From assembly GCA_029932465.1 (NCBI GenBank), contig JAOZQA010000001.1, forward strand, positions 2,953 through 66,952: 64,000 bases of DNA, given 5' to 3'. Both the position numbers and the translations under genes were made by a program. Below are positions 5,929-49,262 of the stretch, one piece after another. The notes beneath the pieces were generated by a model. The model did not search any database. It was not told the DNA's origin and was given only the letters and a program-made list of their open reading frames with translations. This DNA is from Thermoplasmatota archaeon. Lineage in GTDB: Archaea > Thermoplasmatota > Penumbrarchaeia > Penumbrarchaeales > EX4484-36. How positions within the stretch are numbered: position 1 is the first letter of the stretch; each line of letters starts with the position of its first letter.

Positions 5929-8811
5929 TCATTCCACGTATACGGCTGGCTTGAGGGGTAAAGCCAGGTGTGCCCTTCCCCGGGGGTCGTATTTTGAGGG
6001 GTCATCCTCCTCGTAGACTGAGACCTCGGCCCCCAGCTCTCTGGAGAGAAAGGGAATGCTCCTCCTCAGGAAATCCTTCTCATCCCTGAAGCTGAGGTAC
6101 CTCTGCCGGTCCTCCTCCTTCATCCTCATGACATCCTTGGCCAATCTGCTTATAATCTGGGGGACCACCTTCTTTTTGTCCTTTAATTCCTCTTTCTCCA
6201 AGAACTCCTTTATTACCCTCCCGGGGTCCACCCGCCCCTTCTCCTCCCTCATCCGCATCAGCCTCTCAAGCGCCTCCCACTTCCACCCGGGGGCTGTGTA
6301 GAGGACGATCCGCTCCCCCTCCCTCCCCGTGGCTCTCCTTATGTGGGAGATGTCCTCGAGGAGTCCTTTTAGGTACTCCTCCCTGGCCAGCACTCCCTGG
6401 TCGTAGGCCTCCACCTCACCGGTCTGCGAGAGGGAGACCAGCCCCTCTCCCCCAGCCATCTCCCACAGCTCCTCAGCAAGGTGGGGGGTGAAGGGCATCA
6501 TCATCTTCGCCCAGGTGCGCACGGCCTCCTTGAAGGCCTCCCCGCCCCCGCCACCCCTTCTCAGATACCATCTTAAATCCTGATACGTCTGGTAATAGAC
6601 GGTCCCGGCGGCCTCCCTTAAGGCGTAGTTCTCCATGGCATCCAGGTACTCCGAGAACCTCTTAGCTAAAGCGGCCCTCAGGTAGTCGTCCATCTCCCCC
6701 CCCTCCCCCCCGCCAGATATAATCTCTCTCACCAGGTTGAGTATTTTAAGGAGCCTGCTCTGGTAGTCGCTTACCACCTCCTCCCTCCACTCCACATCCA
6801 TCTCCGGGGAGCCCACGTGGCAGTAGTAGAGCCTCATGGAGTCAACGCCGTAGTGGGCGATGGCCTCTGGTATGGGCTCTGCCCCACCCTTGCTCTTGGC
6901 GATCTTCTCACCGCCCTTCTGGGTCACCCACCAGTGGACGAAGATTCCCCGGGGCCATGCCCATTTAGGCATTATGGCAACGTGGTTCATGAGAAAGACG
7001 GGGAAGTGTACCGTTTTGTGCTCCTTCCCCCCCAGGTTTATATCTAGCGGATACCAGTAGAGGAAATCTCTTCTTATTTTCTCAATAACCCCCCTCCTCT
7101 CCTCCGGAAAATCACTTATCTCCCCTCTTCCAAGATAGACGTAGTCAAAGAACCTCTCATCCATCCACTCCACCTTAAGTTCACCGGAGTTCACATACTT
7201 TGAAACGATGTAGTAGGCGGGGTAGAGGGTTGAATCCGATATCGGCTCAATGATCCATCCCTTTGCGAAGGGAAACTCCGTTCCAAGCCAGGAGCCCTGG
7301 CGTATGCACGCCCTGTCAGAGAACCATTCCAGCACCCCGGGGAGCTCTCTCTTGTACTCCTCTGGATATATCATCATCCTCTCGGTGTGCTCCACTGACC
7401 TCTCGGTGAGCTCCTCGTCCGAATACCTTATGAACCACTGGTTCTCAATCCTCTTGATCACAACCCTCTCCCCGCAGCGACATATAACCTCCTTTGAAAA
7501 GTCGTAGAAGGGCCTGATGAGCCCGATGTTTTCCAGGTCCACTTTCAGGGTGTCTTTGATCTCGGAGACCTTAAGCCCTGCATAGTCCATACAGAGGTCG
7601 TTCAGCACTCCAGAGTGGAACTCCTCCCTGTAGATCTCCCGGGTGGCCTCCTCCAGCTTCTCCACCTCGAACTGGTCCTTCACCCCCATGCTCTTTACAA
7701 GATGACCTGCTGGATCCTCCATGGGGTACTTGCGGCTCTTTATGATGGTTATGGGCATAATCCCCTCCACCACGCTCTTAAGTCCCCATGGGTCCTCCCC
7801 CTCTCTCAGCTCCCCCTTAAGGTCCTCAAGGGCTATCCAGTCGTAGGGGGCGTGGGCGGGAACGGACATGACCACCCCCGTGGCCACCTTCGGGTCCACG
7901 AAGGGTCCAGGAAGTATAGGCACCTCCCTGTTGGTATAGGGCACCCGGCAGCTCTTCCCTATGAGCTCGGAGCCCTTTATCTTTCCCACTTCTTCAACAT
8001 CACCCATCTGATAGCTGAGTTTGACGTAGCCCTCCCGGGAGAGAAGCCACCCTCTTCCATCCACCTCCGCCACCACGTACTCCACATCCGGGTTCAGCCA
8101 CATGTTGGTCACGCCGAAGAGGGTCTCAGGCCGCAGCGTTGCGGCGGGGAGGATGAGCTGCTGCGGCCCCTCGAAGAGGAGGAGTGAGTACTCCAGGACA
8201 TCGGCGTCTCCCCCCTCGGAGACGTCGGTCTGGGAGGGGTCCACCGCAACCGGCCCGCAGTTTGGGCAGTAGGGGGCGTAGTGGGGCTTTTTTGTGAGAA
8301 GCCCCTTCTGGTTCAGCTTCAGGAACTGCCAGGTTATGAAGCGCTTGTACCCCGGGGATACTGTGGACATCGCCCGGGAGAGGTCTATTGTGAAGCCGAA
8401 CCTCTTCCAGTAGTCGTTTATGTACACCTTTGAGAAGAAATCAATGAGGTAGCTAACGTCCTTGAGCTTCTCAATCTCCTCCTCCGGGCAGCCGTTTCTT
8501 TTCAGATATTCTATTGTGGAGGGGTCCCCTCTCTGAATCCTCTTCGCCAGCGATATGGCTGGCAGGCCAGAGGCGTGAAATCCCACGGGAAAGAGGACGC
8601 TGTAGCCCCTCTGCCTCTTGTAGCGACAGATCACGTCAGCGTATGTGAAGCCCCTCATGTGGCCCACGTGGAGGTAGCCAGAAATTCCAGGGTAGGCGAA
8701 GATGAGAAAGAACTTCTCCCGCGTCTCATCTCTCTCCGCCTCCCACCTCACCTTCTCCTCCCATATCCTCTGCCATTTCCTTTCGATGTCAACGAGCACG
8801 TTCTCGGCCAT
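5929..8811 (-). CDS. leuS: Leucine--tRNA ligase, archaeal type
   Basis: YPGISGYLHVGH (HIGH), CP1 editing TLRPET and GVVMSVPAHAPYD, GKEHKTVH, KIAKS (KMSKS variant), C-terminal KPAVYVE. Confidence 0.97.
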   Translation of the reverse strand: MAENVLVDIERKWQRIWEEKVRWEAERDETREKFFLIFAYPGISGYLHVGHMRGFTYADVICRYKRQRGYSVLFPVGFHASGLPAISLAKRIQRGDPSTIEYLKRNGCPEEEIEKLKDVSYLIDFFSKVYINDYWKRFGFTIDLSRAMSTVSPGYKRFITWQFLKLNQKGLLTKKPHYAPYCPNCGPVAVDPSQTDVSEGGDADVLEYSLLLFEGPQQLILPAATLRPETLFGVTNMWLNPDVEYVVAEVDGRGWLLSREGYVKLSYQMGDVEEVGKIKGSELIGKSCRVPYTNREVPILPGPFVDPKVATGVVMSVPAHAPYDWIALEDLKGELREGEDPWGLKSVVEGIMPITIIKSRKYPMEDPAGHLVKSMGVKDQFEVEKLEEATREIYREEFHSGVLNDLCMDYAGLKVSEIKDTLKVDLENIGLIRPFYDFSKEVICRCGERVVIKRIENQWFIRYSDEELTERSVEHTERMMIYPEEYKRELPGVLEWFSDRACIRQGSWLGTEFPFAKGWIIEPISDSTLYPAYYIVSKYVNSGELKVEWMDERFFDYVYLGRGEISDFPEERRGVIEKIRRDFLYWYPLDINLGGKEHKTVHFPVFLMNHVAIMPKWAWPRGIFVHWWVTQKGGEKIAKSKGGAEPIPEAIAHYGVDSMRLYYCHVGSPEMDVEWREEVVSDYQSRLLKILNLVREIISGGGEGGEMDDYLRAALAKRFSEYLDAMENYALREAAGTVYYQTYQDLRWYLRRGGGGGEAFKEAVRTWAKMMMPFTPHLAEELWEMAGGEGLVSLSQTGEVEAYDQGVLAREEYLKGLLEDISHIRRATGREGERIVLYTAPGWKWEALERLMRMREEKGRVDPGRVIKEFLEKEELKDKKKVVPQIISRLAKDVMRMKEEDRQRYLSFRDEKDFLRRSIPFLSRELGAEVSVYEEDDPSKYDPRGRAHLALPLKPAVYVE

Positions 8812-26603: not shown

Positions 26604-27566
26604 ATGAAAGCGGAAACAAGTGCGGACAACGATGAGGTTTTCTTTGAGGAGTTCGAGGAGCTGAAGGAAGAAGAAGAGAAAATTGAAGAGGTAGACGAAG
26701 TGGAAACAGCCGAAAAGGGAAGGGTAGCCAAGAAGATACCGATACCTGAGGGTGCAAAGAGAAAGATCCTTCAGCAGGCTAGGGAAATAAAGAAGTTAAG
26801 AGGTCAGCTGGTTCGTGCAAAAAGAGAGCTGAGCACCCTTAAAGGGGAAATGGGGATGCTGAGAAGGGAGGTAGGGCGGATTGGGGAGGAGAAGACTCGG
26901 CTGGAACAGCAAGTCCTTGAGAAGGAGCAATACATAGCAGCTTACGAAAAAAAGCTTAAGAGGTTACAAAAGGATTTTGAGAGGTTTAAAGAGAGGGTGG
27001 AGAGGGAACGGGATAACGAGGTGAAGAAACTAAACCGCAAGCTGTTTTTAGAGTTCATAGAGATAAAAGACACCCTTGAAATGGCCATTGAAGACGCTGA
27101 GAGGAGACTGGAGGCCCTCGGTAAGCACAGAGATGTACAGGCGATAATAGATGGCTTGGAGGGCATTCGCTCTCAGGTCCGCAACCTCCTCAAAAGACAC
27201 GATATTGAGGAGATCAACCCGGTTGGAGAGGAGTTCGACCCCCGTTACCACGAAGCCCTAGATGTCATGGGGCCTAGAGGGTATGGGGGAGTGAAGGTGG
27301 TAAAAGAGGTGGTCTCTAAGGGGTATAGGTTGGAAGACTACCTTTTGAGACCCGCAAAGGTCATTCTGGAAGTAATCGACAGGGAGGAGGCTGAAAAGGG
27401 GGAGGAGGAAAAAGTAGAGGAAGAGGCGGAAGAGCTCCCGGAGAAGCTGGAGGAGATTGGGGAGGAGGTACTTGAAGAGCTTGAAGTAGTGGAAGGGGAG
27501 GAGTTTGAAGAGCTAGAGGAGGCGGAACTTGAGGAGTTGGAGGAGGGCTTTGAGCCAGTAGAGTAA
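26604..27566 (+). CDS. grpE: GrpE nucleotide exchange factor with long N-terminal coiled coil and acidic tails
   Basis: DFERFKERVERE, EF..I.D.LE.A, GEEFDPRYHEA, KGYRL....LRPAKV; directly upstream of dnaK. Confidence 0.85.
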   Translation: MKAETSADNDEVFFEEFEELKEEEEKIEEVDEVETAEKGRVAKKIPIPEGAKRKILQQAREIKKLRGQLVRAKRELSTLKGEMGMLRREVGRIGEEKTRLEQQVLEKEQYIAAYEKKLKRLQKDFERFKERVERERDNEVKKLNRKLFLEFIEIKDTLEMAIEDAERRLEALGKHRDVQAIIDGLEGIRSQVRNLLKRHDIEEINPVGEEFDPRYHEALDVMGPRGYGGVKVVKEVVSKGYRLEDYLLRPAKVILEVIDREEAEKGEEEKVEEEAEELPEKLEEIGEEVLEELEVVEGEEFEELEEAELEELEEGFEPVE

Positions 27567-27673: not shown

Positions 27674-30259
27674 ATGGCAAGAGTTATCGGAATAGACCTC
27701 GGAACGACAAATTCTGCGATGGCGGTTCTAGAAGGCGGAGAGCCCATGATCATACCAAACGCGGAGGGGGAGAGGACAACCCCCTCGGTGGTTGCCTTTA
27801 CTGAGGATGGTGAGGTTATCGTGGGGAGGCTTGCAAAACAGCAAGCAATAGCAAACCCAGAGAGGACCATAGCCTCTATCAAAAGAAAAATGGGTTCAAC
27901 CTACAGGGTTCGGATTGATGATAAGGAGTACACTCCTCAGGAGATATCCGCTTTCATCCTGCGAAAGCTAAAACGTGATGCTGAGGAGTATCTGGGTGAG
28001 AGAATAACTAAGGCCGTTATAACAGTACCTGCTTATTTCGAAGACCCGCAGAGGCAGGCCACCAAGGATGCCGGCAGGATTGCAGGCCTTGACGTGTTGA
28101 GAATAATCAACGAACCCACCGCCGCCGCCCTGGCGTACGGTCTGGATAAAATGGACGAGGAGCTCACAGTCCTTGTGTTTGACCTTGGCGGGGGGACGTT
28201 TGACGTATCCATACTTGAGATAGGAAACGGGCTCTTCGAAGTCAAAGCAACCTCCGGGAACAATCACCTAGGAGGGGATGATTTCGACAGGAGGATCATG
28301 GACTGGCTGATAGACAGATTTGAGGAGAGATACGGTGTAGACCTCTCCCAGGATCGTATTGCAATGCAGAGATTGAAGGACGCTGCGGAGAAGGCCAAGA
28401 TTGAGCTCTCCACGAAACTCAGCACTGTCATCTCGCTGCCTTACATCTGGGTGGATGAGACCGGTCCCAAACATCTGGAAGAGGAGTTGACCCGGAAACG
28501 CTTTGAGGCCATGACGGAGGATCTGATTGAAAAGACGATTGGGCCCACTAAGCGGGCACTCAAGGATGCTGGACTTAGACCATCGGACATAGACAAAATC
28601 CTTCTTGTTGGTGGAATGACCAGGATGCCCGCGGTCCAGAACTTCATACGAGAGTTCTTCAAGAAGAACCCTGAGAAGAAGATCAACCCCGATGAATGCG
28701 TAGCTATCGGTGCAGCTATCCAGGGCGGTGTTCTGACTGGGGAGGTAAAAGACGTTCTTCTGCTGGACGTGACACCCCTTTCGCTGGGTGTGGAGACCGT
28801 GGGTGGTCTGACCTCTAAGATTATTCCGAGAAATACCACCATACCAACCAGGAAGAGCCAGATATTTTCCACTGCCGAGGACAATCAGACCTCTGTGGAG
28901 ATACACGTGGTGCAGGGTGAGAGAGAGCTTGCGAAGGATAATAAATCCCTTGGAAAGTTCACCCTTGTTGGCATCCCACCGGCCCCCAGAGGCGTACCTC
29001 AGATAGAGGTTACCTTTGAGATAGACGCCGATGGAATACTCAACGTCTCCGCAAAAGACTTAGCCACCGGTAAAGAGCAGAAGATAAAGATACAGCCTTC
29101 TTCTGGCATTACGGAGGAGGACGTCAAAAGGATGATAGAAGATGCTGAGAGATACGCTGAGGAAGACAGAAAGAAGAGAAAACTGATAGAGCTCAAAAAT
29201 CAGGCAGATGCCCTCATATATCATACGGAGAAGAGCATAAAAGAACTGGAAGACAAACTGGATAGAGACAAGCTTAGAGAGGTCAAGAAAATAATAAAAG
29301 AAACCCGGGCTGCCATGGAGGGGACTAGCGTTAAGAAGCTGAAAGCTGCCATAGAGAAGCTCAATGACGCGTCCAAGGACCTCTTTGTGGGCGTATGGGG
29401 ACGGGTGGCTGAAGAAGAATATGAGCCTGTTACTGTGAAATGTCCGAAATGTACTAAGAAGTTCACTGTGACGAATCCAACAAGGCCCCTTAAGGTCACC
29501 TGCCCATATTGCGGTGCAACGGGCACAATAAGAACACCTCCTAAGAAAAAGAAGGTGGAGAAGAAGAAGGAAGAGAAGGCTCCAAAGAAGAAGGTGAAGG
29601 AAGAGGAGGTGGAGAAGCCGAAGAAACCAAAGAAACCGAAGAGGGAGGAGAAGGTAAGGGAGAAAGAGGAGATAATTACTCCTCCGCCACCCAAGAGACG
29701 GTACGAGGAGGAGGAAGAGGAGTACTATCCCAGAAGGCGGAGATATGAGGAGGAAGAGGAAGAAGAGTACTATCCACGAAGAGGGAGATACGAGGTGGAG
29801 AAGGAAGAGTTCAAACCGGAGGTCAGAGAAGAATACGGTTATGAGGAGAAGTATGAAGAGGAGGCCTATGGCGTTCCAATCGCTGAGTATGAAGAGGAAG
29901 AGGCACCTGCAGAAGAGGAGACGGCTATTGTAGAATGTCCGAAGTGTGGGGCAGAGATTGAAGTTCCTCTTACCGGTGCGGTGGAGAGGATTAGGTGTCC
30001 CGAGTGCGGCACCCGGGGTAGGGTGGACACCTCTCTTTTGATGGGTGAGGAGGAAGAAGAGGAGGAAGAAGAGGAGGAAGAGGAGGAGTACTATCCCAGA
30101 AGGAGGCGGTATGAAGAGGAGGAAGAAGAGGAAGAGGAGGAAGTGAAACCCACCATAGTGAGATGCAAGAAATGTGGCCATAGGTTCAAAGTCACATCCA
30201 GAAAGAGGCCTCTCAGAATCCGATGTCCCGAGTGCGGAGCAGAGGGTGTGCTGAAATAG
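27674..30259 (+). CDS. dnaK: DnaK (Hsp70) with ~290-aa C-terminal extension of three zinc ribbons and Glu-rich repeats
   Basis: [37 protein letters not shown], linker [13 protein letters not shown], substrate-binding domain and lid; then CPKC/CPYC, CPKC/CPEC, CKKC/CPEC. Confidence 0.96.
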
Positions 30260-30299: not shown

Positions 30300-31376
30300 T
30301 TGGAGAAGACATACTATGAGATACTGGGAGTTCCCGAAAGCGCTACAACAGAGGAGATAAAAAGGGCTTACCGGGAGCTTGCAATGAGACATCACCCCGA
30401 TAAGAACCCCGGGGACACTAGCGCAAACGACAGATTCAGAGAGATACGCCAGGCTTTTGAGGTTCTTGTTGACCCTGCAAGGAGGCAAAAATACGATAAC
30501 TATTTGAAGATGAAGAGGGAGGGACGCCTTCCCCACATGCAGTCCTCGAAGAGCGCGGAAGCGGTCTCCGCCAACGGTGGGACGTCTCAGAAAGTACCAG
30601 TTCAACGCCCGGGCTTTCCCCCCAGGCGAGGCAAAGATGTGGATTACGAACTTACCATATCTTTTAAAGAATCATACTTCGGCACAGAGAAGACCATAAA
30701 GGTTTCTGTTCCCGGCCCCTGCAGGGTCTGCAACGGTACAGGCTATGACCTCTCATCCTTCGTTGTATGCCCCACCTGTTTCGGGGCCGGATACGTTATC
30801 CAGACCGTGCAGACTGCCTCTGGGGTTCAGAACAAGACAATCACCTGCCCCACGTGTCGGGGCATGGGGGGAAACTACCTAAGAAAGTGTGCTAGATGTA
30901 AAGGAACGGCCACAGATATGTATCTTGAGAAGATAAAGGTGAAGATCCCTGCTGGAGTGGAGAATGGTGCGATCATCAAACTGACCAACAAAGGGGGTTA
31001 CGGCTACTTTGGGGGCCCCCGAGGAGACCTTAACCTTAAAATGAAGGTTGAGAAGGATGAGGAGTTCTGGAGGGTCGGGAACAACCTCCACACAAAGATA
31101 GTAATCTCCTTCGTCAAGGCCATACTGGGGGGGAGGGCGAAGGTAAAAACCCTGAAGGGGGTAGAGACAATACCCGTGCCGGAGTTCAGCACACTGGGCA
31201 CAGAGCTCATAGTGGAGGGGGAGGGATTTCCGGATCCGGTAACCGGTGAGCGGGGCGATCTGATAGTGGAGGTGAACATAGATATACCCGAAAACCTCTC
31301 AGATAAAGAGATAGAGATTATAGAGAAATTTGCAGAGATGGCGGGTATAGATCCTATGGACCCCGAGGTACTTTAA
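30300..31376 (+). CDS. dnaJ: DnaJ co-chaperone (J domain, four CxxCxGxG-type motifs, C-terminal domain)
   Basis: YYEILGV, HHPDKN, CRVCNGTG/CPTCFGAG/CPTCRGMG/CARCKGTA, KIPAGV, GDL; TTG start. Confidence 0.93.
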   Translation: MEKTYYEILGVPESATTEEIKRAYRELAMRHHPDKNPGDTSANDRFREIRQAFEVLVDPARRQKYDNYLKMKREGRLPHMQSSKSAEAVSANGGTSQKVPVQRPGFPPRRGKDVDYELTISFKESYFGTEKTIKVSVPGPCRVCNGTGYDLSSFVVCPTCFGAGYVIQTVQTASGVQNKTITCPTCRGMGGNYLRKCARCKGTATDMYLEKIKVKIPAGVENGAIIKLTNKGGYGYFGGPRGDLNLKMKVEKDEEFWRVGNNLHTKIVISFVKAILGGRAKVKTLKGVETIPVPEFSTLGTELIVEGEGFPDPVTGERGDLIVEVNIDIPENLSDKEIEIIEKFAEMAGIDPMDPEVL

Positions 31377-31395
31377 TGGGTTGAGGGGAGAGGTC

Positions 31396-32142
31396 ATGCT
31401 TTATCTCATTGGCGTGGGTCATGTATTCCCACTGCGGGAGAAGGTGCGAGAGCTAATCAAAGTTCTCGAGCCGGAGGCAGTATGTGTTGAGCTAGATCAG
31501 CTCAGATACAAAATGCTTCTTGAGAAAGAGCGGGGGGGGAGTCCCTTTCCGTTTAGCCTCCTCTCCAGGATGTACGACAGGGCCTCTGAGGTATATGGTG
31601 CTGAAGTTGGTGAGGAGATGCTAGGCGCTATTGAGGCTGCGAAGGAGCTGAAAATACCCTACTTTTTCATAGACGTGCCGGTTCAGAAAGAACTTCCCTC
31701 GGCCCTTAGAGAGCTCCCTTTGGGAGAGAGGGTTAAACTTGTTCTCTCCGCTTTCGCGGCCTCCCTTCTCCCTAGAAGCCTTCTTAAAAAAGCCACAGAT
31801 GAGGTTATGGAGGACCCTCAGAAACTTTCACAGGAGTTTGAAAAACACTACCCTGAGCTGAAAAAGATTCTTCTTGACAGCAGAGAGGACTACATGGCAA
31901 GAAGGCTCTCTTGGGTGCTGGGAAGATTCAGTAACGTGGTAGCTGTTGTGGGTGAGGGGCACTTAGAGGGGCTTCAGAGAAGGCTCCAGGGAACCGAGTT
32001 GAAGGTTGTGCATCTGAAGGAACTTATAAATAGGGGGATGGAAGATATTTTGAAAATGGGCGGAAATGGGGTGGCAGAGCGGGTGGAAGGAGTAAAGATT
32101 CAATTTGTGGTGAAGGAGAACCCCTGGGAGGAGATATATTGA
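31396..32142 (+). CDS. TraB/PrgY/GumN family protein
   Basis: LIGVGHV, VCVELD, GEEMLGAI, FID, R..YMA..L, VVAVVGEGHLEG; start ATG 31396. Confidence 0.8.
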   Translation: MLYLIGVGHVFPLREKVRELIKVLEPEAVCVELDQLRYKMLLEKERGGSPFPFSLLSRMYDRASEVYGAEVGEEMLGAIEAAKELKIPYFFIDVPVQKELPSALRELPLGERVKLVLSAFAASLLPRSLLKKATDEVMEDPQKLSQEFEKHYPELKKILLDSREDYMARRLSWVLGRFSNVVAVVGEGHLEGLQRRLQGTELKVVHLKELINRGMEDILKMGGNGVAERVEGVKIQFVVKENPWEEIY

Positions 32143-40512: not shown

Positions 40513-41242
40513 GGGGGTGAGGAAGCTGAATGGGACTTCAAAAGAGGACGAAAAGGAGAAGAAAAGGCGGTGGCTTCAGGAGCATAAAATGCTTCAGGAT
40601 GAACTCCTCAAGATGAAGTTTGAGATGGTGGCTGAGGGGAAGAGAGATGGGAAGATGGAAGTGAAATCCCCTTACCTGGAATCGGTTTCCGAGAGAATAG
40701 TCTCCGGGAGGACCGAACTGCCTTCAGTCCCAACAGGAAAGAGCGAAGGTGGCCCGAGGGGTGAAGTGCCTACCATACCCAAGCCCCCCGGGTTGGCTGA
40801 ACACATTGCCAAGATCCTGGAGCACGAAAGCAAGATCAAGAGGATGAAATACAAAATGATGAGGGATGAAGAAGAGAGCTTTAAGAGGGCGGGAGAGAAA
40901 GCACCGAAGCCGGTTGAGGGCGCAGCTCCCTCGAGGCCCTCCAAAGAGATTGCGGAGACAAAGAAGGCAGCACTTCAAGCAGAGAAACCTGCTCCTTCCC
41001 CCCTGGGGGTGTCGCCCCCTTCGGCTCCCCCCCGCCCGTCAGATGCAGGGAAAGAGGCACCAGGTGAGGGCACCCTTTTGAAGGAGAAAACCTCTGAAAA
41101 GTCAGAGGTTTCCCCGGGCGTCCCCTCTCCCAAAGTTGTTTCATCCTCAGGTGACGAAAAGAAGGAAGCAGTAGCGCCCAAGAAAGTACGGAAGCTGAGG
41201 GTTATAAGGAAGAAAAAGATTAAACGGAAGGGTGTTTCATGA
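40505..41242 (+). CDS. Pro/Lys/Glu-rich probably disordered protein with basic C-terminal tail
   Basis: Overlaps both neighbours; low complexity; ends KKVRKLRVIRKKKIKRKGVS. Start codon uncertain. Confidence 0.6.
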   Translation: MTEGVRKLNGTSKEDEKEKKRRWLQEHKMLQDELLKMKFEMVAEGKRDGKMEVKSPYLESVSERIVSGRTELPSVPTGKSEGGPRGEVPTIPKPPGLAEHIAKILEHESKIKRMKYKMMRDEEESFKRAGEKAPKPVEGAAPSRPSKEIAETKKAALQAEKPAPSPLGVSPPSAPPRPSDAGKEAPGEGTLLKEKTSEKSEVSPGVPSPKVVSSSGDEKKEAVAPKKVRKLRVIRKKKIKRKGVS

Positions 41243-44200
41243 ACGTTGAGGAGATGGCGAAGAAGGCGATGAGAAAAAAGCGCCTTCCGGCAGAGGAGCA
41301 TTTAATCTTACTCAGACTTTCCTACGTCACCGGTACGTTCAAAAAAAAGGAATTCTTAAAGCTTAGGGAGCGCATTGAAAGGGGGGAGATGGGGAGAGAC
41401 GAATTTGAGAGGAGGGTACTGGAGCCGTTGAGTACTAATCTGAAAGAGATCCTCCTTGGTTTCTATAATGGCCTTCTAGCAGACCTACCTGAAGGTTTCT
41501 CAAAAAAGGGAAGAAAGGAGGCGGATCTCTCGGAACAAATCGAAGGGAAGTTCGTAAGGTGTTCGAAGGGTCTTAAGCGTCTTGAGAACCTCATAAACGC
41601 CTTCCCCTCCACCCAGAGGATTTTTTACCGGGAAGCGCTGGAAAGATTGAGAGACGTCATAGAGAACCCCACATGGCTGAAAAGTATAGAGGACAGCATG
41701 CTATCTCAGGTTAAAATAAGATTCACCTCCTACGCGAGGGCCCTCAAAAAAGGGAACATAACGCTATCGCTAGCCCATTCAAAAAGACTTATGGAGATAA
41801 TACGCTATTCTAAGCTTATTGTAGAGATTAATTCAAATGTTGAGGAAGTCTTAACCCACGTTGAGAACATACTAGTTGTGAAGAGAAGAAGAAAGGAGAT
41901 AAAAAGCCTCCATAAGCTTCTCCTGCGCAGCGGGGTGGATGTGAGGAGTTACATCCACCGGAGGCATAGGCTCACCAAGGAACTCGGGAAGGAACTTCTT
42001 CACAACGAAAGGGAATATTTGGAGAATCGGGTGAGTGGACTGGAGGAGTTGGAGGAGACAGTGGATACAATCACTCCCATCCTATCCGCCCCGGTGAATC
42101 TTTCCAGAAGGGACAGAGTTCTTAAACATCTGAGCGACGTACGCAATACAATTCCACACGATGATTATCCCAGCTACGTTCTTCTCACCTTTCAACCCTT
42201 CACCTCTATGGATAAGATAGAAGACGCAAAAAGGATACAGATGCTGAGATGGGACCTTGGCGACCTTATGACGGCAGGCGGCGTTACAGAGGACACTCTC
42301 AGATCATATCTCAGGTCTATGGCAGTTATTCTTGAAGGAAATCTTAAAGGGACTGCCCGGGCAGAAAGCCTCTATGATACTGTAGAGGTGATGAAGAGTC
42401 AGGGCCTTCAAAATACCTGGCAGAGATTGAGGATGAGGCTTGATGCCCTTCGAAAGGCCACGGAGGCTGTTAAGGAGGCCGGTATTGAACCTTCCGAAGA
42501 ACAGCTCCAGAAGATGGGGGAACTCGAGGAGCTTCTCCGCGGGGAGCCGAATTTTGCGATTGTAGAAAGCGTAACCGAGGAGCTGAAGGGTGTTGAGAAG
42601 GAACTTGAGGGGATTATGAAGGGGAGGGAGGACCAACTGATACTTGAGAGGGCGGAGAATTTGATGGCCTCTCTGAAAGCGCTTCGGGCCGAGGGATTGG
42701 ATGTCACCCCACTACTTGAGAGAGTTCAGGAAACCCTTGTTAAGGAGAAAATCGTCTATCCCATGCAGGAACTCATTGACCTTTATGATATAGAGAGGGA
42801 GATAAGAAAGCTAGAGGAGGAACTTAAGGAGAATAAATTGAAATCCATGAAAGCGGAGATAGAAGAGAGATTGAAAGAGGCCGAAGAGAGAGGACTTGAA
42901 GTGGCCTTGGAGAAGGAGTCCCTGGCTAAGATCGAGTCCAACTGGGATAAATGGAGCAAGGAGAGACTCACCAATGAACTTCAGGCTCTTAACTACTCCA
43001 TCATGAACCGCCTTGTGGGAACGAGGAAAGAAGAGTTGAAAGAGCAGCTCCAACTTTTACGAAAAGAGGCTACGGAATCCAGTGCTGCACTGGATCTTTC
43101 AGAGGCGATGTCTCTTTTGAACGAAGCTGAGAAGATGTTTGAAAGCAATCAACTGGAATTTGCTGATGCATACTTGAGGAGAGCCCAAGAGGCTCTTGAT
43201 ATGAACAGGAAGGTTTTCATAACCGAATCCTCGTTCTCCAAATTAAATAATTTAAAAGAAGAGGTCGAAGCGCTTAAAGAGAGCGGGGCAGACGTATTTG
43301 AGGTTGAACAGCTTCTGACGGAGGCGGAAGACCTTCTTATTAAGGAAAGATACGAGGAAGCTAAGGCTACCCTTGACCAGGTTGATAGGAGATTTTCCAC
43401 ACTGAGGGAGGAATACCTAAATTATTTCATACCCCAGCAGATAGAGCAAATACGTGAGACCTCTGAGAACTTAAGCAGGAAAGGAATTCCCAGCAGATTC
43501 ATCACCACAAGACTTGAGGAACTGGAAGACGCCTTGAGGGCAGGGGACCTTAAAGGTAGCTTAAGGTTGCTCAACGAAGCAAAAAGAAGTCTTGAGAGGA
43601 TCTACCTGACGGACAACGTTACTGCCTTACCGGAGAGGATTATGAGGCTCAGGGAGACGAAAGAGAGGCTGAAAGGGTATGGGGTGGCGATAGAAGACGT
43701 TGAAGCGCTTCTGGATGAAGCGGAAAGACTTCTTTCTGCAGAAGATTTCAGCGCTGCAAGGGAACTTACGGACAGGGCGGAAAATATACTTAAGGAAAGA
43801 GAAATCAACTTCCAGAAAAGCTCCTATAAGACTATGTTTGAAAGGTCTCAGGAGCTCATTGATATGATGAGGAAGGAGGGAATAGAGGTCAAGGTTCCCG
43901 AGCTTGAAATCAATCTGGCGCAGGACAGCTACAGCAGAGGCGACTACTCTAAGGCCTTCAATTTGATGAAAAGTGTGGTGGATTATCTTGAGAGGGAATA
44001 CAAGGAGAAGTACTTCTCTCGGAAGAAGCAGGTATACTTTGACCAGATAGAAGAGCTTAAAGGGATTTATAACGAGCTGCCAGAGGATAAAAAAAAGGAA
44101 TTTGAGGAGGCCCTCAGGGCAGTGGAAGAAAGGCTGCTTCTTGATGACCTGGAAGGCGCTGACAGTATGCTGGAGAGGATGAGGGAGATCGTTCTTAAAG

Positions 44201-46242
44201 GGGAGGAGCAGATTCGTGTGGAATCCCTCAGAAAGAGTATACGGACCATGGATGTTCTGATAAAGAGGTTGAAGGACGCTGGGGTGGATGTGGGTGAGGC
44301 ACCGAAGCTGTTAAAGGAAATCGAGGAAGAGATTGACAGAGGCAACATTGAGAAAGCTGAGGAACTCACTGAAAGGCTTGAAACGTATCTGGTGGAGGAG
44401 AAGAGGGGAGTGCTCGAGGAGAACCTGCGGGTTGAGATTGAAGGCTTGAGAAGGAGAATCAGAGATCTCCGCAATGTCGGGATGGATATGGAGTATGCTG
44501 CTAATATCGTTTCAAAAGCGGAAGAGCTTATTGAAGTGGGGAAGGTGGATGAGGCTTCGAGGCTCCTTGGTGAGGCAAATGAAATTGTGGAGGCAGCGGA
44601 AGAGGTCGCCAGAGAGGGCCGTCTTTTCGAATCGGCGAAGGAGGTTGAACAGCTTATAGAAGAGTTGAAGGGCGAAGGGGTTGAGGTTCCGGAGACCGAG
44701 CTTCTTGAAAAGGCCAGAGAGCTTGCCGCTTCAGGGGAACTTGAGGAAGCGGAGGAGATGCTGAGAAGATTGAAGGAGACGCTCAGTGCCAGACGGAAAG
44801 AGATCTTGGAAAGCCGTTTCACAGAGGAGGTTGGCGAGATACTCAAGGAGGCAGTCATATTGAAAGAGGAGGGGCTGGAGATAGAGAATATAGAGGCTAA
44901 GATTAAAGAAGCCACAGAGAAGTTCCAGAATGAGGATTATGAGCGTGCATTTCAAATTCTTAAGGATTTAAGGACCATAGTAGATGAGCTGAAGGGAGCT
45001 CGGGAGATAGGGGATGTCAAAAAGGCGCTGGAGAGGGTTCTTGCCTCTCTTGAATACTATTATGGGAGAAGGGAACGTCTGCCCAGAAAGTTGCGAGAGC
45101 TTGAGAAGGCAGTCAAATCCGCCCTGGAGAGCGGTGATGAGGAGGAGATGTCAAGCGTACTGGAAGAGGTATTAAGCCTGCAGATGAGCGATAAACTGGC
45201 TAGAGCGGTCTCCAGGAATATTAGGCGCTATTCGGGTGAACTGATCTCGGAGATAAAGCCAGATGAGGAGACCATGGAAGTAGTGTCTGAGAGGATCTCC
45301 AGGCTAACCGAACTAATAAAGAGGGGAGATTACAACGAAGCTGTGAAAGAGGGCTTTACTCTTCTGGGAATGCTGGTGGAGATGAAAAAGAAAAAGGAAC
45401 TTGAGAAAGAGATGAAAAGGATTGAGGTGTTAAGAAGAGAGGTGGAGCTTCTCAAAAATGAGGGTTATAGTGTTGAGGTAATAGAGAACATCCTCACAGA
45501 AGCGGAGATGGAGTTTCAGGAAGGTGATTACGATAGAGCAAGGGTGCTTCTGAAAAGAGGTAAAGACTATCTGAAGGAGCTCAGCCTGAGGTATAAGCTG
45601 GAGAGGGCGAGAGAGGCCATAGATCTGACCGAGGCTCTTGTGAGGTATTTGAAGGATAACTTTGTGGGCATCTCTTCCCATCTCCGCAAGCCAGAAGAAC
45701 TTCTTAAAAAAGCTAGAGAGGCCTTCATAAACAGAAAATACCGGACGGCTGAGAAGTATGCAAACCGCGCTAGGGAACTTATAGAGGGGAACGAAGAGCT
45801 GAATCTGGAGCAGTTTCTCTACGTCTTCTACTCCCTGCATCTTAACGAGAGAATCAGTGACTACATAAGCAAATTGGAGGCTATGAGCAAGAAGGTGAGA
45901 GGAGCGGAGGGGATAATAGAGGAACTTAAGGTCTTGAGGCGGGAGCTGGAAAGCGGTATGGATCCCACAGTTGGTGAGATGAGGTTAAAAGAGATCAGAA
46001 CACGGATGAGAGCGCTGGAAGAGACAGCACAGAAGAATGAGGCTTTTGAAGCGCTGAACAACCTCTATAAGAAGCTCCAGCCGTATATGGACCGAAGGGA
46101 AAAGAGCTTCCGTGAGGCTGTCAAATATTACAATCTAGCAAAGGAGGCCTTCTCCTTCCAGGAATACACCAAGGTAATACTCTATTCAAAAAGAGCACTC
46201 TTTATGCTCAAGAGAGCCCTGACGAAGGAAAGAAAGGGGTGA
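41239..46242 (+). CDS. Giant (1667 aa) alpha-helical repeat / coiled-coil protein
   Basis: Uninterrupted ORF; at least a dozen units like LKxxG[VI]DV.E.E.LL.EAE..L..GDY..A; no TM segment or catalytic motif seen. Confidence 0.8.
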   Translation: MNVEEMAKKAMRKKRLPAEEHLILLRLSYVTGTFKKKEFLKLRERIERGEMGRDEFERRVLEPLSTNLKEILLGFYNGLLADLPEGFSKKGRKEADLSEQIEGKFVRCSKGLKRLENLINAFPSTQRIFYREALERLRDVIENPTWLKSIEDSMLSQVKIRFTSYARALKKGNITLSLAHSKRLMEIIRYSKLIVEINSNVEEVLTHVENILVVKRRRKEIKSLHKLLLRSGVDVRSYIHRRHRLTKELGKELLHNEREYLENRVSGLEELEETVDTITPILSAPVNLSRRDRVLKHLSDVRNTIPHDDYPSYVLLTFQPFTSMDKIEDAKRIQMLRWDLGDLMTAGGVTEDTLRSYLRSMAVILEGNLKGTARAESLYDTVEVMKSQGLQNTWQRLRMRLDALRKATEAVKEAGIEPSEEQLQKMGELEELLRGEPNFAIVESVTEELKGVEKELEGIMKGREDQLILERAENLMASLKALRAEGLDVTPLLERVQETLVKEKIVYPMQELIDLYDIEREIRKLEEELKENKLKSMKAEIEERLKEAEERGLEVALEKESLAKIESNWDKWSKERLTNELQALNYSIMNRLVGTRKEELKEQLQLLRKEATESSAALDLSEAMSLLNEAEKMFESNQLEFADAYLRRAQEALDMNRKVFITESSFSKLNNLKEEVEALKESGADVFEVEQLLTEAEDLLIKERYEEAKATLDQVDRRFSTLREEYLNYFIPQQIEQIRETSENLSRKGIPSRFITTRLEELEDALRAGDLKGSLRLLNEAKRSLERIYLTDNVTALPERIMRLRETKERLKGYGVAIEDVEALLDEAERLLSAEDFSAARELTDRAENILKEREINFQKSSYKTMFERSQELIDMMRKEGIEVKVPELEINLAQDSYSRGDYSKAFNLMKSVVDYLEREYKEKYFSRKKQVYFDQIEELKGIYNELPEDKKKEFEEALRAVEERLLLDDLEGADSMLERMREIVLKGEEQIRVESLRKSIRTMDVLIKRLKDAGVDVGEAPKLLKEIEEEIDRGNIEKAEELTERLETYLVEEKRGVLEENLRVEIEGLRRRIRDLRNVGMDMEYAANIVSKAEELIEVGKVDEASRLLGEANEIVEAAEEVAREGRLFESAKEVEQLIEELKGEGVEVPETELLEKARELAASGELEEAEEMLRRLKETLSARRKEILESRFTEEVGEILKEAVILKEEGLEIENIEAKIKEATEKFQNEDYERAFQILKDLRTIVDELKGAREIGDVKKALERVLASLEYYYGRRERLPRKLRELEKAVKSALESGDEEEMSSVLEEVLSLQMSDKLARAVSRNIRRYSGELISEIKPDEETMEVVSERISRLTELIKRGDYNEAVKEGFTLLGMLVEMKKKKELEKEMKRIEVLRREVELLKNEGYSVEVIENILTEAEMEFQEGDYDRARVLLKRGKDYLKELSLRYKLERAREAIDLTEALVRYLKDNFVGISSHLRKPEELLKKAREAFINRKYRTAEKYANRARELIEGNEELNLEQFLYVFYSLHLNERISDYISKLEAMSKKVRGAEGIIEELKVLRRELESGMDPTVGEMRLKEIRTRMRALEETAQKNEAFEALNNLYKKLQPYMDRREKSFREAVKYYNLAKEAFSFQEYTKVILYSKRALFMLKRALTKERKG

Positions 46243-46439: not shown

Positions 46440-47093
46440 TCAGCATATACCTTTTAAGTAGCCCAGCGCTCCCATAAGATGGTATTTTCCCTCCCCGCTG
46501 CACCAGCTACCGTGGCCCGGGTAGAGGCTTCTGAAGTCCTCTTCGATCAAGGATTTCAAGGAGCTACAAAGTAGTCTCAGGTCGCCCCCGGGGAGGTCCC
46601 ACCGCCCTACCCACCCGCCACAGAAAAGCAGGTCACCTGAGAAGAGTGCTCCTTCCTCCTCATATATATACACGGTCGAGCCCGGGGAGTGCCCAGGGGT
46701 GTGAATGGTCTTGAGGGAAAGGCCCCCCGGGAGGTGCAGTGTGCCTTCTTGAAAGGTCTTAATCTCCTGAGGGGGTCTGAACACCTCCCCGAAAAGCCAT
46801 CCTCCAATGTAAGTGTCATCTCCCTGGGCGAGTGTATCCCGAGCTACTCTATGCGCAAAGACAGGGCAATTGAACCTCTCCTGTAGTGCACGAGCGGCCC
46901 CAGCGTGGTCAATGTGCTCGTGGGTAAGCAAGATGCACTGGAGGTCTTGGGTGTGCCTCTCAATCCTTCTGATGAGCTCCCCCCCTCTAGAGGGGAGGGA
47001 AGTGTCTATAAGATACCAGTTATCAGAGTGGTTGATCAGATAGGAAGCACACCCTATGGAGTCATCCCCACACTGGATAACCTTGAAGGGCAT
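46440..47093 (-). CDS. Metallo-beta-lactamase fold hydrolase (glyoxalase II-like)
   Basis: THEHIDH, HTPGHSPG, FSGD, YPGHG. Confidence 0.87.
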   Translation of the reverse strand: MPFKVIQCGDDSIGCASYLINHSDNWYLIDTSLPSRGGELIRRIERHTQDLQCILLTHEHIDHAGAARALQERFNCPVFAHRVARDTLAQGDDTYIGGWLFGEVFRPPQEIKTFQEGTLHLPGGLSLKTIHTPGHSPGSTVYIYEEEGALFSGDLLFCGGWVGRWDLPGGDLRLLCSSLKSLIEEDFRSLYPGHGSWCSGEGKYHLMGALGYLKGIC

Positions 47094-47142
47094 GATACAC
47101 TCAATCATTTATATGCTTAAACGTTTACCCTTCCGCATGCAC

Positions 47143-48618
47143 ATGTTGGGGGAGAAACATCGGAAGGTCAGGGAGGAGGTGCTAAGGAGGGTTAAACCCA
47201 CCCCCGAAGAGGACAGGCGGATTGAAGAAGTGGTCCAGGAGTTGATGGAAAGAATAGAAAGAGCGAAGGAGCTACTCCAGCTATCCTGGGAGATCAGAGC
47301 GGAGCTTGTGGGGTCCATCGCTAAGGGCACTCACCTGAAAGACCCCGACATAGATATCTTCCTCCTCTTTCCCCGGGGGGTGGGTGTTGAGACGCTACAC
47401 ACGGTAGGACTGAAGCTATGCCTGGAAGTCCTCCCCCAGGGCCAGAAGCTCTACACCCAGCATCCCTACATACACGGCGAATTCATGGGATTTGAGGTCG
47501 ACCTTGTGCCCTGTTTTGAGATGAAGAAGGGGGAGGAGATAGGGAGCATGGTGGATAGAACCCCTCTTCACACAAGATTTGTGAAGGAGCACCTGGATGA
47601 AAGTGGAAAGGACGAGGTGAGGTTGCTTAAGGCATTTCTCAAAGGAATAAAGGCTTACGGGGCTGAGGAGGCGGTAAAGGGAATGTCCGGCTATCTAGCT
47701 GAGCTCTTCATTATAAAATTCAGCAATTTTGAGAAGACCCTCCAGGAGCTCTCCCGAATACGTCCTCACACGAAACTGACCCTCGGCGGCCGGGAGGCAG
47801 CAGTCGCTGTAAGAAGAAAGTACACCGATGATGACCCCCTGATCTTCATTGACCCTGTGGACCCCAGTAGAAACGTTGCATCCGCACTTTCTGCAGAGAA
47901 CCTCCTCTACGTAAAGAAGGCAGCTTGCTGTTATCTCAGAGCTCCTTCGTTAAGTTTCTTCTTTCCCCGGAGAATCAGCGAAATAGACGGAGCTAAAGAT
48001 ATCGTATGGGAAAAGGTGCAGGCTATTCTCGGCAGCGGGGGCGGGATCCTTCTTTTAACAGTAGACCTCCCCCCCGTTCAGGCGGACATCTACACTTCTC
48101 AGACCAGAAGATTCCTTAAGAGGGCTGTTGAGACCTTTGAACGTGAGGGCTTCAGGAAAATAAAAAGCGGGTTTTACATCTACTCGCCCCCCCGTGTGGG
48201 CCCCTTTCCAGCTCCCAGAATAAAGGAGCACATAGAATCTGAGAGAGTAGAACTTGTAATGCTGTTCATATTCCCTCAGTACAGAAAAGGTGAGCGAAAA
48301 CTCCACCTGGGGCCTCCGGTTCATGTGAAGGCTAGAGCGGAGGACTTCAGAAGGAAGTGGGAGGGGAGGGAGGAAGCCCTTTCCAGGATATTCATCAGGG
48401 ATGGAAGGTTGGCCCTGTACATCAGACGTAGAATGAGAGAACCTCACCAGATGCTTCCAGTGGTTCTGAAAGCACTTCCCTCACACTTGAAAAAGGCATA
48501 TGAGTCGAGAATCACCATCTCCGTAAACCGGGGTATAGATATCGAAAGGTACTGGGAAGCCCTCTATCTTGCCCTCTCTGGCAGGGAGCTGTGGGAGCTT
48601 GACGAGGATACTGGCTAA
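47143..48618 (+). CDS. cca: Archaeal (class I) CCA-adding enzyme
   Basis: GSIAKGT.L..DIDIF, HPY, VDLVPC, DRTPLH, SGYLAEL, DPVDP.RNVA; start ATG 47137 or 47143. Confidence 0.92.
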   Translation: MLGEKHRKVREEVLRRVKPTPEEDRRIEEVVQELMERIERAKELLQLSWEIRAELVGSIAKGTHLKDPDIDIFLLFPRGVGVETLHTVGLKLCLEVLPQGQKLYTQHPYIHGEFMGFEVDLVPCFEMKKGEEIGSMVDRTPLHTRFVKEHLDESGKDEVRLLKAFLKGIKAYGAEEAVKGMSGYLAELFIIKFSNFEKTLQELSRIRPHTKLTLGGREAAVAVRRKYTDDDPLIFIDPVDPSRNVASALSAENLLYVKKAACCYLRAPSLSFFFPRRISEIDGAKDIVWEKVQAILGSGGGILLLTVDLPPVQADIYTSQTRRFLKRAVETFEREGFRKIKSGFYIYSPPRVGPFPAPRIKEHIESERVELVMLFIFPQYRKGERKLHLGPPVHVKARAEDFRRKWEGREEALSRIFIRDGRLALYIRRRMREPHQMLPVVLKALPSHLKKAYESRITISVNRGIDIERYWEALYLALSGRELWELDEDTG

Positions 48619-48719
48619 GGAGGTCCCTAGTGCGCATCAGGATACGGAGCCATCTGTAGGACATCTCTCCAAGTTGGGAAAGAAAATCTATATATACCGG
48701 ATCTCTATAGAGCCTATTG

Positions 48720-49244
48720 ATGGCTTTTTATAAGAATTATCAGGTGTTCATCATTGTAGCACTTCTCTGCTCGGTGCTGCTCGCCCCCACAACAGGGGCT
48801 GTTAGAACATTTTATATTGAGGGTAATGAGGTTGAGACCCAATCCATCCCCGGGCAGACCCTTCTCTTCATAAACATCACGGTTGTCAACGGAAGCAGGA
48901 TAGACCTCTACATAATAGAAGAGGAGCCCTACATACGAATCATGGACGAGGGCGGGGTAATTGAAGACGAGGCTATACTCATCTGGAAGAACGTCTCCAG
49001 CCTGAAGTTCCAGTTCTATGGTGAGAATTCCACCCGCTATTATCTCGTTATGGTGCCGGTTGGCGGTGCTGATGACCTAGATGAAGAACAACCGTATCTG
49101 ACGGATGTGACAGGCAGTACAGGGAGCACGGTGAATATACAGATAAAATATGAGGAAGAAGAGAAGCAGGGCTTCTATATGGGAATGGGACTTACCGCGT
49201 TGACGTTCCTCATAGTTTTCTATGGTGCCCTCAGAAAACATTGA
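48720..49244 (+). CDS. Secreted protein with C-terminal membrane anchor
   Basis: N-terminal signal-like hydrophobic stretch, beta-rich middle, C-terminal GLTALTFLIVFYGALRKH. Confidence 0.6.
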   Translation: MAFYKNYQVFIIVALLCSVLLAPTTGAVRTFYIEGNEVETQSIPGQTLLFINITVVNGSRIDLYIIEEEPYIRIMDEGGVIEDEAILIWKNVSSLKFQFYGENSTRYYLVMVPVGGADDLDEEQPYLTDVTGSTGSTVNIQIKYEEEEKQGFYMGMGLTALTFLIVFYGALRKH

Positions 49245-49262
49245 ACAGAGAGAGTGTCTCTG

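Follow-up and report, generated by a model that had tools for sequence, protein, structure and literature searches.

What does it mean for a DnaK, one of the Hsp70s and hence among the most conserved proteins known, to run on past its lid into an array of small cysteine-bearing modules? The question is raised by a dnaK gene in a 64,000-nucleotide stretch of the genome of a Thermoplasmatota archaeon (assembly GCA_029932465.1, contig JAOZQA010000001.1, positions 2,953 to 66,952), the whole of which we call the window. The site at which an Hsp70 acts is normally set by separate partners, such as J-proteins, TPR proteins, Tim44, and RAC; here a whole archaeal clade appears to have hard-wired folded, predicted metal-binding modules onto the C-terminus. 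The ribbon-tailed DnaK is a real, conserved, and uncharacterized architecture. In line with the premise of a reading of the DNA made from the letters alone (the sequence-only reading), our literature search found no paper on a DnaK or Hsp70 with a zinc-ribbon tail or on the function of such ribbons in archaea, and databases label these proteins plain “molecular chaperone DnaK.”

The reading frame is unbroken over 861 codons. Pfam HSP70 matches residues 78 to 570 (E 4.6e-242), with the model reached to position 593 of 599; residues 1 to 575 score 934.8 bits against the NCBIfam DnaK equivalog NF001413 (cut-off 648), and the protein scores 920.4 bits against TIGR02350 (cut-off 822.55). In an alignment of 52 DnaK homologues (alignment A3), the ATPase residues D8, K70, E147, D170, T175, and D177, whose E. 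coli counterparts are D8, K70, E171, D194, T199, and D201, occupy invariant columns, and the interdomain linker LLLDVTP is likewise invariant. The lid helices lie at residues 481 to 578 in the AlphaFold2 model, and the alignment to DnaK chains of the PDB stops at residue 581. With every testable defining feature present, the protein is, judged by its sequence, a DnaK family member, and its core is predicted to be an intact ATP-driven DnaK that works with GrpE and DnaJ. It shares all four core parts and the grpE/dnaJ operon with canonical DnaK (6w6e_I, 2v7y_A; Bacillota). However, ordinary DnaKs are ~600 to 620 residues long and end in a short disordered tail without cysteine pairs, whereas the window DnaK continues for 286 residues and three Cys4 ribbons. 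The sequence-only reading, which had an intact DnaK to about residue 575 followed by some 290 residues in frame, thus described the protein correctly. Its parts are the following.

27674 to 30259, + strand: dnaK open reading frame, 861 codons plus stop; DnaK core, then the 286-residue ribbon tail
27674 to 29398, + strand: DnaK core, residues 1 to 575; nucleotide-binding domain, linker, substrate-binding domain, helical lid
29423 to 29539, + strand: ribbon 1, residues 584 to 622, net charge +6; 55.8 bits against the family profile, strands of the model at residues 586 to 619
29441 to 29452 and 29501 to 29512, + strand: cysteine ligands of ribbon 1, residues 590, 593, 610, and 613
29540 to 29704, + strand: Lys/Glu-rich basic linker, residues 623 to 679, net +11; predicted local distance difference test score (pLDDT) below 40, insertions and deletions relative to the homologue P0002
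29681 to 29692, + strand: PPPP, residues 670 to 673, within the Lys/Glu-rich linker
29705 to 29743 and 29747 to 29788, + strand: E(n)YYPRR copies 1 and 2, at the start of the acidic Tyr-rich stretch
Residues 680 to 748, + strand: acidic Tyr-rich stretch, net −19, opening with these two E(n)YYPRR copies
29918 to 30034, + strand: ribbon 2, residues 749 to 787, net −2; 47.7 bits against the family profile, strands of the model at residues 750 to 783
29936 to 30007, + strand: cysteine ligands of ribbon 2, residues 755, 758, 775, and 778
Residues 788 to 824, + strand: poly-Glu acidic linker B, net −20, holding E(n)YYPRR copy 3
30047 to 30109, + strand: E(14)YYPRRRR, repeat copy 3, inside acidic linker B
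30146 to 30256, + strand: ribbon 3, residues 825 to 861, net +10; 53.5 bits against the family profile, strands of the model at residues 827 to 860
30164 to 30235, + strand: cysteine ligands of ribbon 3, residues 831, 834, 851, and 854

All the elements that the sequence-only reading had named, namely a Lys/Glu-rich segment, a PPPP stretch, and three copies of E(n)YYPRR, are located in the tail. It had written the three ribbons as VxCPxC-x~16-CPxCG; the cysteine coordinates are exact and the ligand spacing is CxxC-x16-CxxC, but the first knuckle of ribbon 3 reads CKKC, not CPxC. Ribbon 1 begins 7 to 8 residues past the last lid helix and is preceded by an EEEYEP flank, ribbon 2 lacks the Arg-Pro motif described below, and ribbon 3 forms the C-terminus of the protein. 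A profile built from the ribbons of homologues gave each of the three 48 to 56 bits and matched nothing else in the window; the tail matches Pfam Zn_ribbon_4 with E 4.7e-14 and TIGR02098 with E 1.3e-11. In the AlphaFold2 model, computed from the 52-homologue alignment, each ribbon is an independent four-stranded β unit (block pLDDT mostly 70 to 88) and the tail linkers are disordered (pLDDT < 40). The ribbons are accordingly modeled as folded Cys4 units on disordered linkers and predicted to bind metal. Along the tail, the net charges form the blocks +6, +11, −19, −2, −20, and +10, the pattern of a block polyampholyte.

The fusion of core and tail is not peculiar to one contig. The identical 861-residue protein is encoded on at least three contigs of separate projects, including ENA ERZ27227320 and JGI 3300021472, all of which keep the order grpE-dnaK-dnaJ-traB. 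The 40 best full-length database matches are all long DnaKs (690 to 956 residues) from metagenome-assembled genomes (MAGs) of Thermoplasmatota or “Thermoplasmata archaeon.” In a set drawn from NCBI, JGI, ENA, and Logan data, 41 of the 41 closest DnaKs bear C-terminal CxxC-x16-CxxC ribbons directly behind the lid, two or three in number except in two sequences that show one complete ribbon; the next-ranked matches are ordinary 600- to 620-residue Bacillota DnaKs without cysteine pairs. In a neighbor-joining tree of the core (residues 1 to 570), the 41 are monophyletic with no ribbon-less member inside, which argues that the tail was gained once and kept. No locus examined contains a separate ribbon gene between dnaK and dnaJ, nor do other ribbon genes lie beside dnaK in the relatives L001, L002, L083, L084, and L086. 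The in-frame homologues and the independent assemblies together settle in favor of the sequence-only reading that the junction hides no stop or frameshift.

Selection on the ribbons was gauged at the DNA level by comparing the window with its 87%-identical relative L086. The ratio of nonsynonymous to synonymous divergence (dN/dS) is 0.010 for the core, 0.006 for ribbon 1, 0.028 for ribbon 2, and 0.049 for ribbon 3, with synonymous sites saturated (dS 1.2 to 2.1); the tail linkers contain insertions and deletions and have a two- to sevenfold higher dN. These values indicate purifying selection on the ribbons as strong as that on the DnaK core. In the best-sampled clade, clade A (16 sequences), mean identity is 97.7% for ribbon 1, 89.8% for the core, and 66.8% for the last ribbon.

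The consensus of the DnaK ribbon is KPxxIxCPKCGxxIxVxSPERPxKIxCPxCGAKGTLK, in which the four Cys are invariant and Ile, Arg-Pro, and Gly near-invariant. Ribbon 1 always lies close behind the lid; its charge over 35 residues is +7 to +11 in all but one of the six clades of DnaKs, the exception having +3 or +4. Linkers of ~20 to 160 residues carry the distal ribbons, which vary in charge among clades: in clades B to D the ribbons are basic throughout, and in clade A the last one is acidic. On their N-terminal side, the DnaK ribbons also share a flanking motif, E-E-E-Y-[K/E]-P, whose Tyr (position −7) is present in 67% of them and whose Pro (position −5) in 93%. Some lineages show departures of their own. 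In place of CxxC, the last ribbon has CPxxxC as its first knuckle in clade B and C-K-C or C-S-C in clades C and E (P0019, P0021 to P0034, P0038, and P0042), and clade C DnaKs have a conserved motif, FHEPRKGIWQPSDKE, in their long second linker.

The E(n)YYPRR copies echo this flank and are a repeat at the DNA level as well, three copies of ~62 nucleotides that are 79 to 85% identical. They are confined to the sublineage of the window (window, P0001, and P0002); P0002 has four or five copies to the window's three, and the copies differ in sequence between these two proteins. The poly-Glu run (GAG/GAA) at 30047 to 30088 has 14 codons in the window and 10 in the 99%-identical P0001, a difference that is probably a polymorphism within one population-level lineage, arising by slippage. 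A search with the tail alone, which was dominated by poly-Glu and poly-Lys words and gave three weak matches, found no other proteins with E(n)YYPRR. Because they occur in one sublineage and vary in copy number and Glu-run length, we treat the repeats as linker material; they appear to be fast evolving and to lie outside the conserved design. The repeats that the sequence-only reading had given equal billing with the ribbons are therefore present but not a general feature of the tail.

To which family do the ribbons belong? Among Pfam and NCBIfam models, the whole tail scores best against Zn_ribbon_4/5 and TIGR02098 (“MJ0042”), with 52.5 bits against PF13717 (Zn_ribbon_4; cut-off 30.3) and 44 bits against TIGR02098 (cut-off 20.9); the tail also reaches 43 bits against PF09723 (Zn_ribbon_8; cut-off 34.4) and 33.1 bits against TIGR02605 (cut-off 31.3). 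These scores exceed the cut-offs because three ribbons sum. Taken singly, the ribbons score 23.2, 29.6, and 27.4 bits against Zn_ribbon_4, and against Zn_ribbon_8 the values are 23.1 for ribbon 1, 29.6 for ribbon 3, and 17.4 for the clade A ribbon 1. Since no single ribbon reaches a cut-off convincingly, the ribbon is not filed under any named Pfam family, and Pfam has no dedicated model for the DnaK type. A DnaJ-type finger was rejected because no knuckle of the tail fits CxxCxGxG. The zf-DNL identity was rejected on the lack of a DNL/DHL motif in the ribbons, on the absence of that family from the best 60 PDB sequence matches, and on a Foldseek E of 0.83, and a rubredoxin-like identity on 23 bits against NF033497 (cut-off 32) and 19.5 bits against NF045720 (cut-off 45).

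Foldseek of a single-ribbon model against the PDB gave nothing significant (best E 0.7), so its ranks are only hints. LysW (5k2m_E, 3wwl_A) is the best PDB sequence match of a single ribbon (E 1e-6) and also Foldseek rank 1, and it is followed among the sequence matches by ribosomal protein eS27 and RNA polymerase subunit P/Rpb12. LysW, like the tail, has a zinc ribbon followed by an acidic tail; unlike it, LysW is a free 54-residue carrier with a functional C-terminal Glu and no Arg-Pro loop, so that the similarity is at the level of a generic ribbon. The ribbon has the zinc-ribbon fold and cannot be filed under the MJ0042/Zn_ribbon_4-5, Zn_ribbon_8 (Ruc), DnaJ CXXCXGXG, zf-DNL, or rubredoxin-like families as these are defined.

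The same ribbon is found far beyond DnaK. An exhaustive search of 1.84 billion representatives of 50%-identity clusters with the DnaK-ribbon profile returned 1,724 clusters with E ≤ 1e-3, of which 144 reach E ≤ 1e-10; DnaKs account for 2 of the best 150 matches. (A word-indexed search with the same profile, which this one supersedes, had yielded six tiny proteins and missed even the DnaKs.) The best 148 non-DnaK matches carry from one to seven ribbon copies each. A transmembrane segment is predicted for 97 of them, 93 of which have all their ribbons behind the last such segment; as in DnaK, no more than 12 residues separate the end of the last ribbon from the C-terminus in 124 of the 148. Examples are the proteins P0127 to P0276 and the loci L088 (3001 to 13257) and L089 (2001 to 5174). 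Their N-terminal parts include PKD and Ig-like ectodomains, and soluble carriers comprise a response-regulator receiver protein, a KaiC-like ATPase, and an Mrr-NACHT/STAND NTPase. The ribbons of these proteins are without the DnaK-type flank (Pro in 25%). The few named members of the family are all from Thermoplasmatota, Thermoplasmata, or “Euryarchaeota” MAGs. One MAG, GCA_016928095.1, encodes both a ribbon-tailed DnaK (P0004) and a PKD surface protein (P0233) with a signal/anchor, a transmembrane segment, and three ribbons, the first of which (IRIKCPACSKVFKVTDTGDRPLHMTCKHCGAAGTV) is visibly like ribbon 1 of the DnaK of that MAG.

From its distribution, the ribbon appears to be a lineage-wide module that lies mostly at the predicted cytoplasmic, C-terminal end of membrane and surface proteins. 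The ribbon-tailed DnaK therefore exposes a larger and unstudied module of ~1,700 clusters at 50% identity, one that seems to mark the cytoplasmic tails of surface proteins in uncultured archaea. Ribbons of the Arg-Pro type occur mostly as 2 to 7 tandem copies at the extreme C-terminus, on surface proteins of up to 3,418 residues.

Because many membrane proteins of the same archaea bear such ribbons on their inner tails, we favor a reading of the DnaK tail as a built-in address: a multivalent tether that brings DnaK to a partner shared with those tails. We hold this tentatively, at somewhat short of even confidence. The sequence-only reading had offered a targeting module as one of three possibilities, beside redox sensing and condensate formation, and that part of it gains support from the membrane-protein tails, including the one case within a single MAG. 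An ancestor would have swapped the usual short disordered C-terminal tail for an array of Cys4 ribbons on flexible, highly charged linkers. Ribbon 1, basic, highly conserved in the best-sampled clade, and near the lid, would make the main and specific contact, and the distal ribbon or ribbons, on their linkers of ~20 to 160 residues, would add avidity and reach. Together they may hold DnaK at a conserved acidic or polyanionic partner common to the membrane-protein ribbon tails, most probably at the inner face of the membrane, where DnaK would thereby be concentrated, and the nucleotide-binding domain would remain free for DnaJ and GrpE. If this is so, the protein offers a simple case of a horizontally acquired bacterial chaperone fitted into archaeal cell organization.

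The logic would be comparable to that of Ssb on the ribosome or of mitochondrial Hsp70 at the import channel. In fungal Ssb, and in eukaryotic cytosolic Hsp70 with its EEVD tail, the C-terminal end places the chaperone or recruits partners. These proteins share with our proposal the positioning by the C-terminus and the free ATPase domain, but what they rely on is a few basic residues in the lid or a short linear motif, whereas the window DnaK would use folded metal-binding domains with no sequence relation to either.

That the ribbons would be interaction modules is suggested by analogy with two bacterial proteins, the only ones in the nearest family whose ribbons are characterized. In ZitP, a 43-residue ribbon is sufficient as a PopZ-binding localization signal (PMC5182065), and the ribbon of GltJ works as a switch that binds first a motif of its own linker and afterward MglB (PMC11135422). 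Like the DnaK-type ribbons, those of ZitP and GltJ/AgmX (2nb9, 7zok) are small Cys4 units of ~35 to 43 residues on the cytoplasmic side of membrane proteins, with long flexible linkers, and they serve as protein-protein interaction or localization modules. Unlike the archaeal ribbons, which are C-terminal and come in arrays of two to seven, they are single, N-terminal, and ahead of the membrane segment. In the archaeal ribbons the spacing is x16 and the middle loop contains a near-invariant Arg-Pro; the cysteines of the GltJ ribbon, at positions 5, 8, 28, and 31, have x19 spacing (PMC11135422).

Several observations weigh against the tether to a membrane-side partner. ZitP and GltJ are only weakly linked to the tail: against the Zn_ribbon_4 gathering cut-off of 30.3, single ribbons reach 23 to 30 bits, the PDB profile match to GltJ/AgmX has an E of only 0.016, the Foldseek matches are nonsignificant, and the spacing differs. 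The profile search found no other protein with a DnaK-type ribbon in the window, and co-occurrence in the same genome was seen in a single MAG. Nor can binding to a polyanion be claimed for every ribbon, because ribbon 2 of the window and the last ribbon of clade A are acidic. Finally, the very high conservation of a basic mini-domain is explained no less well by an RNA or ribosome partner than by one at the membrane.

A bolder form of the tether, which we regard as rather doubtful, makes the Arg-Pro-type ribbon an archaeal address tag that wires DnaK, signaling ATPases (receiver, KaiC-like, and STAND), and hundreds of surface-protein tails to one another or to a common hub, perhaps via ribbon-ribbon or ribbon-linker-motif contacts. 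Were it true, this Thermoplasmatota clade would organize a cortical, possibly condensate-like layer under the membrane in which its main Hsp70 is a resident.

The competing explanation that stands up best, although we think it unlikely, takes the basic ribbons and Lys-rich linkers to bind rRNA or other nucleic acid, so that DnaK would be tethered at the ribosome, in the manner of fungal Ssb, in an organism without trigger factor. The charge of ribbon 1, +7 to +11 in most clades, and its conservation above that of the core in clade A fit a very conserved partner of this kind; eS27 and RNA polymerase subunit P/Rpb12 follow LysW as the best matches by sequence among solved structures, and fragments with the ribbon have been automatically annotated as “RNA-binding Zn-ribbon protein.” However, these two matches reflect the generic zinc-ribbon fold and mostly cover one knuckle, some DnaK ribbons are acidic, and an RNA partner leaves unexplained the cytoplasmic-end ribbons in 93 of the 97 top matches that have a transmembrane segment.

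It is rather unlikely that the ribbons bind within DnaK itself, to motifs in their own tail or in other DnaK molecules, such as the E-E-E-Y-x-P flank, E(n)YYPRR, or charge blocks of opposite sign. The outcome could be autoregulation of the lid, oligomers or condensates, or a self-solubilizing effect like that of Hep1. A ribbon that binds its own linker and acts as a switch has a precedent in GltJ, the flank is specific to the DnaK ribbons and echoed by E(n)YYPRR, and the tail is a block polyampholyte. But the charge-block pattern is not kept across clades, with B to D being basic throughout; E(n)YYPRR is lineage-specific and unstable; and the sharing of the module with membrane-protein tails would be left unexplained. 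Mitochondrial Hsp70 has a zinc-ribbon escort, Hep1 (Zim17/Tim15), which works in trans on its nucleotide-binding domain. Hep1 resembles the tail in having a Cys4 ribbon dedicated to an Hsp70 and is second in Foldseek (2e2z; TM-score normalized to the query, 0.64), but the match is nonsignificant (E 0.83) and the DnaK ribbons lack the D-N/H-L signature.

A redox or metal switch, which we consider improbable, would have zinc, or rubredoxin-like iron, bound at the Cys4 sites until oxidative or metal stress frees it and the ribbons unfold. Unfolded ribbons and disordered linkers would then form an ATP-independent holdase that feeds the attached DnaK, in effect a Ruc- or Hsp33-like module fused to a foldase. 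We know of no earlier example of such a holdase-foldase fusion, and if this reading is correct, the ribbon-tailed DnaK would be the first. Ruc (Rv0991c) of M. tuberculosis, which is genetically linked with chaperone genes, consists of a zinc ribbon and a hydrophilic disordered region; oxidation activates it, and it cannot do without the disordered region (PMC7448276). The Cys4 ribbon, the hydrophilic disorder, and the chaperone linkage are all shared with the tail; however, Ruc is a separate small protein with one N-terminal ribbon, and the window has three fused to DnaK. The tail as a whole, with its ribbons summed, is above the Zn_ribbon_8 and TIGR02605 cut-offs, and the CPxCG knuckles are rubredoxin-like, with the subthreshold match to NF033497 noted above. 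Against the switch, single ribbons reach 17 to 30 bits where Zn_ribbon_8 demands 34.4, strongly conserved positions other than Cys in ribbon 1 point to a specific interface over a simple thiol switch, and the same ribbon is found on hundreds of membrane-protein tails and on signaling ATPases, where a holdase switch makes little sense.

Virtually no credence is left for a misassembled or frameshifted fusion to a downstream zinc-ribbon gene or for a functionless low-complexity appendage: the linkers are indeed low in complexity, repeat-prone, and variable in length, but for the ribbons this reading is refuted by the same unbroken frame in independent assemblies, by 41 homologues that run in frame into ribbons with no separate ribbon gene before dnaJ, by ribbon dN/dS of at most 0.05 with saturated synonymous change, and by carriers that form one clade.

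The dnaK gene lies in an operon with the following other genes.

26604 to 27566, + strand: grpE, 320 residues, the first gene of the operon; Pfam GrpE E 1.4e-32 at residues 95 to 254
30300 to 31376, + strand: dnaJ, type I, 40 nucleotides downstream of dnaK; Pfam DnaJ, DnaJ_CXXCXGXG, and DnaJ_C
31381 to 32142, + strand: TraB/PrgY/GumN-family gene, 4 nucleotides after dnaJ; Pfam PF01963

The order grpE-dnaK-dnaJ is found in the window and in the relatives L083 to L087, of which L083 is the locus of a 73%-identical clade A relative; dnaJ is downstream of dnaK in every locus examined, and L001 and L002 (clades B and C) have no grpE called nearby. The position of the TraB/PrgY/GumN gene is held in L083 to L087 (11403 to 12176 in L083), not in L001 or L002. 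DnaJ of the window has a CXXCXGXG zinc-finger domain (PF00684) of its own. GrpE, which is similar in size in relatives (322 to 327 residues in L083 and L086), has an acidic/Lys-rich N-terminal extension and a very acidic C-terminal tail of ~65 residues (EEAEKGEEEKVEEE...EELEEGFEPVE). The acidic tails of GrpE could pair with the basic ribbons of DnaK.

Because the gene sits in a grpE-dnaK-dnaJ operon and its product scores above the DnaK equivalog cut-off, it has the look of the housekeeping copy and not of a side paralogue, which leaves the “specialised Hsp70” of the sequence-only reading unsupported. There is no second Hsp70 in the window. DnaKs of thermophilic Bacillota (Desulfovirgula, Carboxydothermus, and Alicyclobacillus) are 65 to 70% identical to the window DnaK over residues 1 to 575, and a scan of genome contigs with the full window protein returned 80 bacterial dnaK loci, almost all from Bacillota, and none from archaea. 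A bacterial origin of archaeal DnaK is accepted, and the closeness of the core to thermophilic Bacillota DnaKs fits horizontal acquisition from bacteria. The surroundings are those of an archaeal chromosome, since the window encodes an archaeal-type CCA-adding enzyme, ABCE1/RLI, LeuRS, and TyrRS (47056 to 51032 and 5929 to 8811).

At 52021 to 55356 (− strand), the window encodes a surface protein of 1,111 residues, in which an N-terminal signal/anchor is followed by a large ectodomain, a single transmembrane segment, and a short cytoplasmic tail. Two short-spacer Cys4 ribbons (CPECGQVVPADATKCPHCG and CAHCGALVPADADICPKCG) lie in this tail, which closes with an acidic stretch. The sequence-only reading had likened these ribbons to those of DnaK. 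The overall design of ectodomain, transmembrane segment, and Cys-rich tail does agree with that of the ribbon carriers, but the ribbons themselves, CxxC-x10-CxxC and CxxC-x9-CxxC, are of the DZR (“double zinc ribbon”) type, and we rejected their membership in the DnaK-ribbon family on these short spacers and on an E of 4 against the DnaK-ribbon profile. Elsewhere in the window, a 1,667-residue open reading frame without a Pfam match (41239 to 46242, + strand) is rich in Glu, Lys, Leu, and Arg and resembles long helical or coiled-coil repeats; its stretch has the strongest purine skew of the window (GC skew 0.38, AT skew 0.22).

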